Positions 3,943 to 46,661 of a DNA stretch of 64,000 bases are shown here, in pieces. Origin of the DNA: Escherichia coli. GTDB lineage: Bacteria; Pseudomonadota; Gammaproteobacteria; Enterobacterales; Enterobacteriaceae. The position numbers and the translations under genes are program-made. Under the pieces are notes generated by a model. That model did no database searches, was not told where the DNA came from, and saw only the letters and a program-made list of their open reading frames with translations. Every line of letters begins with the position of its first letter. Position 1 is the first letter of the stretch. The DNA lies in assembly GCF_024298765.1 (NCBI RefSeq), contig NZ_CP101210.1; one strand, given 5' to 3'.

Positions 3943-4047
3943 TGCCGGATGCGGTGCACCTGTAGGCCTGATAAGACGCATCAAGCGTCGCATCAGGCAC
4001 TATGCTCAAATGCCGGATGCGGCGTGAACGCCTTATCCGGCCTACAC
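3943..4047. repeat. REP/BIME cluster
   Basis: GCCGGATGCGG...CCTTATCCGGCCTACA units plus GGCCTGATAAGACGC...GCGTCGCATCAGGC unit. Confidence 0.8.
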
Positions 4048-10204: not shown

Positions 10205-10305
10205 TAGGCATGATAAGACGCGGTAAGCGTCGCATCAGGCTTCAGCGCACCACCGCCGGATGCGGCGCGAGCGCCTTATCCGGCCTACGAATCGGCATCA
10301 GGCAT
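10205..10305. repeat. REP/BIME cluster
   Basis: GATAAGACGCG...CGTCGCATCAGGC and GCCGGATGCGGCGCGAGCGCCTTATCCGGCCTAC units between ytfR and ytfQ. Confidence 0.8.
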
Positions 10306-19232: not shown

Positions 19233-19335
19233 ATGCCGGATACGGCGTAAACGCCTTGCCCGGCCTACAAAATCGTCCAAATTCAATATATTGCGGGGAC
19301 TGCGTAGGCCTGTTCGGCATAGCGCATCAGGCAGT
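19233..19335. repeat. REP cluster
   Basis: GCCGGATACGGCGTAAACGCCTTGCCCGGCCTACA and GTAGGCCTG...CATCAGGC palindromic units. Confidence 0.75.
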
Positions 19336-19509
19336 TTTTCATTTTTCAGCTGTCTGAATTTTAACCCTCTGGCGGCTTTACAGTACCTTACGCTATACTA
19401 GCCACTGAAAATGCCGGTTCACTTTCTTCGAATCGGCTTTCAATGTGTATTTCACACAAATTAATCAACTTCCCCTTCCGAGGATCTGGCCTGAAAGGTC
19501 GGATAAGAT

Positions 19510-23968: not shown

Positions 23969-24157
23969 TTCTCCACCTCGTCTCTGTGAGCGGTGTTAAC
24001 TTATTGTTTTACTTATACCCTATCGTTAATGAATGCGCCAACTGTGATAGTGTCATCATTTTCAAAGCGTAAAATTGTGGCATTCTTCACTGTTCTATAA
24101 GTAAGACGTTTATTCTCCCTTTTCTTTCGTATTCCCGATGATAAAAGGATGTCCCTG

Positions 24158-42832: not shown

Positions 42833-42875
42833 ATAGAAACGCTATAATTTAGCTTTGTAGCGTTTCTATTTTTCT
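42833..42875 (+). terminator. Rho-independent terminator after the MFS gene
   Basis: ATAGAAACGCT...AGCGTTTCTAT 11-bp stem followed by TTTTCT. Confidence 0.6.
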
Positions 42876-42960: not shown

Positions 42961-44228
42961 CTAAATTGCCCCCCTGAATGCCTCTGCCATTAACTCTTGC
43001 TCACGACCAGGTAATCGAAGACGCTCGGCAATGATTCGCCACTGACTGACAATCCCTCTAAAATTAGCAATAATGTCATCTGCTTCTGTCAAACCAAGTC
43101 GAAAATACTCCGCAACTTCTCGAGCTAATTCCAAATCAAGTGCATTATCATTTCTGTAATATTGAGTTTTAGACCGTCAGACCTGGCAACAGGATTCAAA
43201 TCATATGCCTCAGAAAGCCGCCAACCTTTTCCCGGTATCAAGATATATCCATGATTACGTAAATGGTCATCGGTATTAGAAACAAGAATATTAAAAACAA
43301 TCCTGGACCAGAGTTCCTTAAGGTCAGTATTAGTCTGCGCTCCATGTCTGATAAGAACATCTGCTAATTCCAGATAACTCACACCTGTAGAGGCATCTTC
43401 ACCATCCTGATGCCTGGTTAGTGTCATAGCCGAAGCAAAATGCAGACGCCTTCCCGCATTAGTGCGGTCAAAACGACGAACCATAAAACAATGGTAATTG
43501 CTGGCAAATTTATGCGCCTGAGCAGGTGCAACATTCAGTCCACAGCCAACAGCAAGTGCATTAACGACCATTTCCCATCCACCAACATCATACTCATCTT
43601 TTACACTGGGAAATTTAGCGATGTAGAGATGCCCAGCTTCATCAACAACACTGGCTTTCGGACGTGCCCCCCCTAATGATCCCCCCGGAGCGATTAGCAT
43701 TCTTAACCATTTTTGCCCCATTAGCTCTTTATTATCAGGATCTTCTTCAATTGCCCGGCTAGCCCTTTCCAGACTCGCTATTTCGGTAAATGGTGGGGCT
43801 GCAACATCAATGCGATTATCAAGAAACTCTCCAGCGTCTTCACGTTTGTATCGAAGAGCCCCAACCCGATAAAGATCATGAACACCTAGTAGATAATCAG
43901 ACTCATAAAGGTGGGAGTCTTTATCACATAACCCGTCTCGAATATCCCTCTCAAAACGACGCTTCATTAGCATACGCCCCCAACGATCCGGGCAGGAATC
44001 ACTAAATGCACCAAATTTATCCTTTGGAGGAATTGGGTACTGTGCTCCCTCATACAACATTATTTCAGGATCTAACTGAATGAAATTAAGTGAAGGATCT
44101 GCAAGCGCCTTTTTATCGTACTCAAACTCAAATATCTCACGCGTCCGAGTGCGGCGACTGTGTAAATAACCAATCCGCTCCGGACCATCCAGGCCTTCCC
44201 AATCCGCATACACTCCGATTAATGCCAT
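42961..44228 (-). pseudogene. HipA-family serine/threonine kinase toxin, frameshifted (367-aa ORF plus ~56 codons continuing in another frame)
   Basis: HipA motifs (APGGSLGGARPK, DDHLRNHG, AYDLNP); ORF stops at 43125 but frame continues to stop at 42961 after a 1-nt shift in an A run near 43151-43153. Confidence 0.7.
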
Positions 44229-44230
44229 AA

Positions 44231-44722
44231 TTAATTTCCTTTTAACGGTTTTTTTATCGGTTTTAATAGTGCTGCAAGAGAGGTTGATGTTTCTCCTGTA
44301 ATAGATGGCGTCGAGCCTTCTGCCAGTGCTGTTAAATCCGTGGTGAGATGACCTTCTTTCTCGTGCCTCATCTGCAATGAGGCTGTCTGAGAACCTTCTT
44401 CATTCTTACTTGATGCACGAGAAAGCCCTCTTTTTTTAATCAAACGGGAATCCTGGAGCTGACGCCCTAAGTCGTCTTCAGCTGCAAGCTTATTTAAATC
44501 CGTTTCCAGGCCCAAAACCTGCATCACAGACAAATATGCCCCTATCGTGACCCCTGCACTTCCTGACTCCAGAGAGCGCAATGTTATTGGCGACATCCCA
44601 GCACGTTCAGCAACTTGCTTTGCGGTAAGCCTGCGTCGTAAACGAGCAAGTTTCAGCCGCTCACCAAATTCACTAAGCATCTGATTCGTATAAGGGAGTA
44701 ACGGTGCTGTTTTTTTACCCAT
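44231..44722 (-). CDS. HipB-like XRE-family HTH antitoxin with long Ser/Thr-rich C-terminal extension
   Basis: 163 aa; [26 protein letters not shown]; stop 2 nt before hipA-like start. Confidence 0.75.
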
Positions 44723-44763: not shown

Positions 44764-45076
44764 TATTAGCATTTATTGGATTGAACGCACCTGCAAAGCG
44801 TTCAAGATTACGAAAGTGATGGTATTTTATCTTTTTATATATAAAAACAATAAAATAACAGCACATTCATATATAACATATTGTTTTTATTATCATACAA
44901 GTGAGACGATCGCTGTATTGATGCTTTTGTCGTGTTTTACGCGTAAAAAACATGACACGAACTACCAGCGGCGAGGCTGGGGGCCAGGTATGGGTACTGC
45001 GAACTTTTTATAAAAGGAATAGCAAGAGATTTATGGAGGGAACGTCTGTTTCTGCGGTTTTTATCACTTAAAAGCA

Positions 45077-45103
45077 AAACGCCGACCACTGGTCGGCGTT
45101 TTT
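45077..45103 (-). terminator. Rho-independent terminator downstream of rplI (bidirectional in appearance)
   Basis: GCCGACC-ACT-GGTCGGC hairpin flanked by A-run and T-run. Confidence 0.65.
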
Positions 45104-46167: not shown

Positions 46168-46581
<414 letters not shown>

Positions 46582-46661
46582 TTATTCAGCCTCCTGTCTG
46601 GGTCAGCCGAATCCCGGGGAGGCAAGGAACGTGTTAAAGGTCGGCTGAAAAATGACGCGTT

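Follow-up and report, generated by a model that had tools for sequence, protein, structure and literature searches.

Does the HipA-like kinase gene on the minus strand of an Escherichia coli sequence of 64,000 nucleotides (contig NZ_CP101210.1; the whole stretch analyzed is hereafter called the window) still encode a toxin and, if it does not, is the single missing base that interrupts it a property of the strain or of its assembly? The initial annotation, made from the sequence alone, had described a HipA-like frame broken by a one-base deletion and had left open two accounts, one in which the toxin is inactivated and one in which the assembly is at fault. The analysis described here favors the first of these: the window very probably carries a vertically inherited pseudogene of the toxin of a type II toxin-antitoxin system, the truncated product of which is most likely non-toxic.

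The minus-strand open reading frame had been said to stop at 43125, and both the sequence and the list of open reading frames bear this out. From its start at 44228, the frame comprises 367 codons and finishes with ...LKLNITEMIMHLIWN, its C-terminal end reading ...GLKLNITEMIMHLIWN. In a frame offset by one base, the coding sequence resumes from 43152 as NDNALDLELAREVAEYFRLGLTEADDIIANFRG...AFRGAI* and continues to a stop codon at 42961-42963 (in full, read one base back from 43152: NDNALDLELAREVAEYFRLGLTEADDIIANFRGIVSQWRIIAERLRLPGREQELMAEAFRGAI*). The run at the junction, 43151-43153, is AAA within the surrounding letters ACAGAAATGA, and the A3/A4 site was placed by aligning the window allele with six other E. 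coli alleles. Inserting one A into this run gives 1269 nt and 422 aa, as had been anticipated (a protein of about 422 aa), and the repaired protein is identical at 422/422 residues to the intact protein of strain NU14 (WP_001173915.1). At the DNA level, the deletion aside, the window gene differs from the intact NU14 allele by four synonymous changes only, which indicates that the lesion is recent. The identity of the downstream frame to an intact orthologue, together with its high conservation across genera, is far beyond chance. The initial annotation was right that the offset frame reaches a stop at 42961 but too short in its estimate of about 56 codons: native sequence is gone from residue 360 onward, and 63 residues are missing. 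The window gene thus lacks an uninterrupted frame of the length typical of the HipA family, stopping after 367 codons where relatives have 420-424 aa. The features of the locus are collected in Table 1.

Table 1. Features of the hipA-2 locus in the window, and one-base lesions of the same gene among complete E. coli genomes.
Feature	Window position	Strand	Haplotype or strains	Genomes	Remarks
hipA-2 pseudogene, whole	42961..44228	minus			1268 nt; intact allele 1269 nt, 422 aa
Truncated reading frame	43125..44228	minus			native residues 1-359, then 8 out-of-frame residues (MIMHLIWN), stop
A3 run, one-base deletion after codon E359	43151..43153	minus			A4 in intact alleles
Stranded C-terminal coding remainder, out of frame	42961..43152	minus			native residues 360-422 and stop
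Gly-rich (ATP-binding) loop APGGSLGGARPKAS	43650..43691	minus			invariant in orthologues; kept in truncated product
Catalytic loop SNTDDHLRNHG	43248..43280	minus			kept in truncated product
Mg-binding motif AYDLNP	43191..43208	minus			kept; 13 residues upstream of frameshift
G6 tract and G7 tract	43681-43686 and 43667-43673	minus			encode Gly-rich loop of hipA-2
HTH (Xre-type) gene, intact	44231..44722	minus			163 aa; upstream of toxin; xre-3, HipB-like, presumed antitoxin/autorepressor
Terminator-like hairpin	42833..42869	plus			between convergent MFS transporter gene and hipA-2; consensus scan only
C deletion, gene nt 505 (codon 169)			ST131-type haplotype	545 of 1044 complete genomes	
G7 to G8 in Gly-rich loop, A at nt 575			Nissle 1917, F11, ATCC 25922	119	
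G7 to G8			NU14-like haplotype: APEC O18, PMV-1, MS20655	18	
A4 to A3 (window allele)			mostly avian-source isolates	71	

The locus has been published as hipA-2/xre-3 (TA28) of the AIEC strain NRG857c, where it lies between ribosomal protein (rps/rplI) genes and a fatty-acid metabolism cluster (Bustamante and Vidal, 2020; PMC7232551). The NRG857c coordinates in that study match the intact gene that we retrieved (NRG857_21375, 4,541,917-4,543,185, 1269 nt), which occupies the same locus as the window gene. In NRG857c the locus is transcribed and stress-induced, with induction by bile salts, the induction reported being that of the transcript, and hipA-2/xre-3 was called a pseudogene in CFT073 (PMC7232551). 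The CFT073 gene is 1270 nt long and frameshifted in RefSeq, one base over the intact allele, like the G8 alleles of Table 1; its lesion differs from that of the window, which is a change from A4 to A3 at codon 359/360. The HTH partner of CFT073 is intact in current RefSeq and identical to that of the window.

Whether the missing base is genuine was the second half of the question. A single base in a homopolymer is a typical sequencing error, and the public assembly of strain MS1170 has several extra G's in hipA-2 that resemble homopolymer errors; the isolate could on this account be truly A4, with an intact gene. However, at three or four A's the run is very short, and the same allele has been recovered many times over. 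Of 5426 complete E. coli genomes, 1045 contain the 1851-bp region, on the chromosome every time, and in 71 of the 5426 an 81-nt probe over the site finds a match of 100% identity, at A3. These 71 come from various laboratories and sequencing platforms, and the isolates are of chicken, turkey, pig, dog, human and water origin. When a one-base gap is allowed (A4), the probe matches 409 genomes of the same haplotype, UTI89, NRG857c, 536 and Nissle 1917 among them. Gene calls on at least 1000 public contigs (NCBI, JGI, ENA and Logan), the Logan and ENA assemblies included, give exactly the truncated product of 367 aa, and the A3 allele travels with private linked markers of its own, namely an A at gene nt 1252, which is synonymous, and, just 3' of the stop, a deletion of 5 bp. 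The presence of one allele in 71 complete genomes, and of its product on at least 1000 contigs, rules out the assembly-error option of the initial annotation, and the probability that we would still assign to it is minute. PGAP gives the identical sequence of strain 104 the label 'type II toxin-antitoxin system HipA family toxin, frameshifted'. The hipA-2 pseudogene is therefore real, ordinary and already known, being annotated in RefSeq at a published locus; our literature search found nothing on a HipA pseudogene in ST131 or on the protein accession.

Several observations accompany this allele. The 5-bp deletion (ATTCG, window 42943/42944) is shared by strain 104, which is also A3; the other five alleles in the comparison lack it. 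Strain names suggest that the window lineage is an avian-associated one of the O78:H4 type. In three avian A3 strains (NZ_CP032078.1, NZ_CP095836.1 and NZ_CP095830.1), IS2 is inserted within the matched region, which looks like a second blow to an already dead locus. In MS1170 (NZ_CP056077.1), the extra G's fall in three separate G runs and the gene is annotated 'frameshifted; internal stop'; this looks like homopolymer sequencing error rather than biology, and it calls for caution with allele counts that depend on single assemblies.

A genuine A3 run could nonetheless be read through: a programmed -1 frameshift, or transcriptional slippage at the A run, might yield full-length HipA-2 at a low level and hence an attenuated toxin, and a -1 shift after GAA would give exactly ...TENDNALD.... 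However, the site, ACA GAA ATG, is not a slippery heptamer of the X XXY YYZ type, and a run of three A's is too short for transcription to slip on it efficiently. No shift is needed in the 409 E. coli genomes of the same haplotype or in any orthologue examined, all of which are in frame, and the orthologues of Yersinia and Pseudomonas have other codons here (GAG GCG and GAT GCG). Because the in-frame alleles are ancestral and in the majority, the A3 configuration is a derived lesion and not a conserved signal. We reject a programmed frameshift because the site has neither the anatomy nor the conservation of one, and recoding of either kind is exceedingly improbable.

What the intact gene encodes determines what the lesion removes. 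The initial annotation had recognized HipA motifs in the frame, and this identification is confirmed: Pfam HipA_C (PF07804) covers residues 184-397 of the repaired protein (E=1.5e-46), and the Gly-rich, catalytic and Mg-binding motifs all lie upstream of the frameshift. In the window's own frame, the PF07804 domain is cut at residue 359 and 38 domain residues are lost. Across 82 diverse relatives (33-82% identity), G187, R189, K191 and N325 are invariant and D320, H322 and D343 nearly so; most of the few invariant or near-invariant positions fall in these three motifs. An AlphaFold2 model of the intact sequence has a pLDDT of 95.5 and a pTM of 0.94; its alignment used the 82 diverse representatives, and a model from 28 close homologues (pLDDT 44) was discarded. 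The best Foldseek match to this model is full-length E. coli HipA (3DNV; TM 0.71-0.72, about 18% identity), and the top matches are HipA of E. coli and Shewanella (3DNV, 3TPT and 4PU5), with TM 0.65-0.72 over the whole length. A full-length HipA fold with the N-terminal subdomain is thus predicted for the intact sequence, and for the intact sequence only.

HipA of E. coli K-12 is a kinase that phosphorylates GltX (PDB 3DNT/3DNV). The hipA-2 locus is like K-12 HipBA in having the HTH gene first and the kinase second, in its full-length fold (TM 0.71) and in its three motif types, but it is unlike it in sequence, the identity of about 18% falling short of a close relationship to clade I HipA. 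In a family profile, positions 214-339 align with K-12 HipA residues 200-334 (about 1e-13), and positions 214-405 align with residues 95-294 of the 312 in the Legionella HipT chain, the segment lost from the window product aligning with the C-terminal helices of HipT. A phmmer single-sequence search of the PDB at E<=1e-3 returned only HipT proteins, without K-12 HipA, and the closest solved sequences are those of HipBST from E. coli O127 and Legionella (7AB3-5 and 8EZR; E=1e-8 to 1e-23). HipT, however, is without the N-terminal subdomain, which is the separate protein HipS, whereas hipA-2 has it fused; HipBST has three genes, and the hipA-2 locus, with two genes and a kinase that carries its own N-terminal beta-rich subdomain, does not belong with it. 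Nor does it belong with YjjJ/HipH, the only NCBIfam model that matches the hipA-2 product (NF007297; 41.5 bits against a cut-off of 401), as YjjJ is described as monocistronic with an N-terminal HTH fused (PMC8262856). Among the PADLOC defence models there was no meaningful match, the kinase being marginal (E=0.006) and the HTH protein generic only. The window gene is a HipA-family kinase gene that by sequence lies far from canonical HipA.

The segment past the frameshift is not dispensable by the measure of its conservation. Relatives at 72-82% identity are all 420-424 aa long, both those of Enterobacter, Salmonella, Yersinia, Pectobacterium, Brenneria, Serratia and Pluralibacter and those of Azotobacter, Pseudomonas, Stenotrophomonas, Achromobacter, Alcaligenes, Herbaspirillum and Burkholderia. 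The initial annotation had noted that its reading would fall if orthologues ended at the same position and the downstream frame were poorly conserved; instead, they run on to 420-424 aa and the downstream part is well conserved. In an alignment of 28 sequences, this segment is among the best-conserved parts of the protein: D361, N362, A363, L364, L368, R370, E371, V372, R377, Q396, W397, R409, Q411, M414 and F418 are invariant in the 28 orthologues, as are I386, I387, A401 and L406, and the stretch GLKLNIT-x-x-DNALDLELAREVA-x-YFR is largely so. The AlphaFold2 model places helices at 366-371, 373-376, 380-394, 397-403 and 408-421, and these lost helices are part of the C-terminus of the HipA fold that aligns over its full length with solved HipA. 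The 63 lost residues are conserved and supply the kinase domain with its C-terminal helices; without them the protein most likely misfolds and has no toxicity. The 367-aa product is accordingly judged, from conservation and predicted structure, to be most likely inactive as a kinase, and the inactivated-toxin option of the initial annotation gains support from the same two sources. Experimental C-terminal truncations of HipA were searched for in the literature, and none were found.

Two bases separate hipA-2 from the HTH gene upstream of it, in the same orientation. The pair recurs amid different neighbors in Yersinia mollaretii (HTH protein of 171 aa) and Pseudomonas (180 aa), so that an adjacent upstream HTH gene, the hipBA organization, is conserved in unrelated contexts. 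The HTH proteins have in common an N-terminal region of about 95 residues that is nearly invariant, a variable linker and a C-terminal LAxLLKPxKK. The window protein is unlike its K-12 counterpart in its greater length, its variable linker and this conserved C-terminus; the canonical partner, according to the supplement of PMC8262856, is 88 aa against 163 aa here, about half the length. Within the linker (residues 103-125), nine amino-acid differences between the window and NU14 are clustered, and the same residues are unalignable in the Yersinia and Pseudomonas partners. The HTH protein of the window (WP_000516891.1) is the same, and intact, in strain 104, 25DN, MS1170 and CFT073, and the HTH gene is intact in every hipA-2 allele inspected. 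Inverted repeats lie upstream of it, and a promoter scan of the region gave nothing better than shuffled sequence. Gene order and distribution suggest that the HTH-kinase pair behaves as a mobile type II toxin-antitoxin module arranged like hipBA, in which the HTH protein would be the antitoxin.

The surroundings of the pair are those of an accessory island. The window's minus strand reads ulaA-F, yjfY, rpsF, priB, rpsR and rplI, then the HTH gene, an order taken from the identical region of strain 104. The edge of the island lies about 53 nt past rplI, just beyond the rplI terminator (45076-45102), at window position ~45070; only those ~53 nt after rplI are common to nearly all E. coli, and the sequence beyond is found in full in 1039 genomes. 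From ~45070 to ~35000, the island holds the HTH-hipA-2 pair and genes for an MFS transporter, an FAD oxidoreductase, a CoA transferase, an enoyl-CoA hydratase, a ketoacyl reductase and a TetR protein; the TetR gene adjoins ytfB, and the fatty-acid/CoA metabolism cluster lies between TetR and HTH-hipA-2. About one fifth of complete E. coli genomes carry the hipA-2 island. An Rfam scan found nothing in or beside the hipA-2 locus. Elsewhere in the window, it gave at gathering level the RpsF leader (46561-46645), the sRNA ES239 (24035-24157), naRNA4 (CssrE; 3965-4042 and 10207-10285), STnc450 (19391-19448) and ES036 (19269-19311), which are ordinary enterobacterial elements, none of them near hipA-2.

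The window's lesion is one of several in this gene. By aligning seven alleles and then applying site-specific probes to complete genomes, we found a frameshifted toxin in about 753 of 1044 carriers (72%), distributed over the haplotypes of Table 1; in strain 446, a G6 variant sits atop the ST131-type lesion. Only the E. coli allele has the G6, G7 and A4 runs; the orthologues of Yersinia and Pseudomonas use GGT/GGC and other codons there. These runs, and the change in G7 length on at least three backgrounds, would be expected if homopolymer slippage switched the toxin reversibly on and off. Phase variation of this kind is nevertheless highly unlikely: each allele is fixed within its clonal group, unmixed, the runs are short and unconserved in orthologues, and the ST131-type lesion lies outside any homopolymer. 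Taken together, the parallel lesions are the familiar decay pattern of a chromosomal toxin-antitoxin module.

Two of the other haplotypes have peculiarities of their own. In the ST131-type allele (L005:1023-2290), the base lost is a C, its equivalent in the window being the C at 43724, and the deletion turns AAAGAGCTAATGGGG into AAAGAG-TAATG-GGG. A 168-aa N-terminal fragment results, its TAA overlapping an in-frame ATG. This ATG, preceded by an SD-like AAAGAG, opens a frame of 252 codons that begins shortly ahead of the Gly-rich loop and reaches the native C-terminus. Judged from this arrangement, the ST131-type allele may be a translationally coupled split, a two-piece HipA kinase, loosely like HipS/HipT but divided at a different point. 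In the haplotype of 25DN and Rb-23, A192T falls in RPKAS, a segment of the Gly-rich loop that is invariant apart from this change, and strain Rb-23 has A192T with an intact frame (WP_001173916.1).

The lesions in other lineages also bear on whether the window's truncated protein could still act, be it as a toxin of reduced strength, alongside the HTH protein as its partner or corepressor, or as a decoy with a dominant-negative effect. Its retention of every catalytic motif is a point against inactivation; the whole N-terminal domain is kept as well, the frame is long and belongs to an operon that in NRG857c, where it is intact, is transcribed and induced under stress (PMC7232551), and the A3 allele persists in a successful lineage. 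Yet the missing 63 residues are kinase-domain residues that rank with the best conserved, and in other lineages frameshifts at residue 168 or within the Gly-rich loop abolish the kinase altogether, the outcome for the genome being the same. Such lesions indicate simple loss of function, and residual function of the 367-aa protein is improbable, if less remote than error, recoding or phase variation. Retention of the HTH gene is uninformative on residual toxicity, because that gene is also intact where the toxin breaks before the Gly-rich loop.

The reading that we prefer, that of an inherited pseudogene, can be set out as a sequence of steps. The module consists of an Xre-type HTH gene and a gene for a predicted Ser/Thr kinase of full-length HipA fold, in the island next to rplI. 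Replication slippage or a simple deletion changed A4 to A3 after codon 359 in the window lineage. The product of 367 aa keeps its N-terminal domain and its Gly-rich, catalytic and Mg motifs and lacks the last 63 residues, and this protein is most likely misfolded and non-toxic. The HTH gene is left intact, as an orphan regulator or putative antitoxin.

Why the toxin has been lost repeatedly is a separate matter. At least four independent one-base frameshifts have struck the toxin gene, the HTH gene being intact in every allele inspected, and an active HipA-2 kinase may have been selected against in successful extraintestinal lineages, as opposed to decaying neutrally; we advance this only tentatively and think it rather unlikely, though far from negligible. 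Were it true, the E. coli-specific G6, G7 and A4 runs would be the mutational route. The convergent loss of hipA-2 over several lineages, named uropathogenic and avian-pathogenic strains included, is of mild interest.

For practical purposes, the pseudogene label that RefSeq already applies is the right one for the window gene, and no inventory of toxin-antitoxin systems or of persistence should credit the strain with a functional second HipA toxin. Similarity-based scoring of toxins overcounts hipA-2, since about 72% of the complete E. coli genomes with the locus have it frameshifted. The intact HTH-kinase module is widespread and strongly conserved, and its natural intact and broken alleles are ready material for tests of toxicity and of targets.
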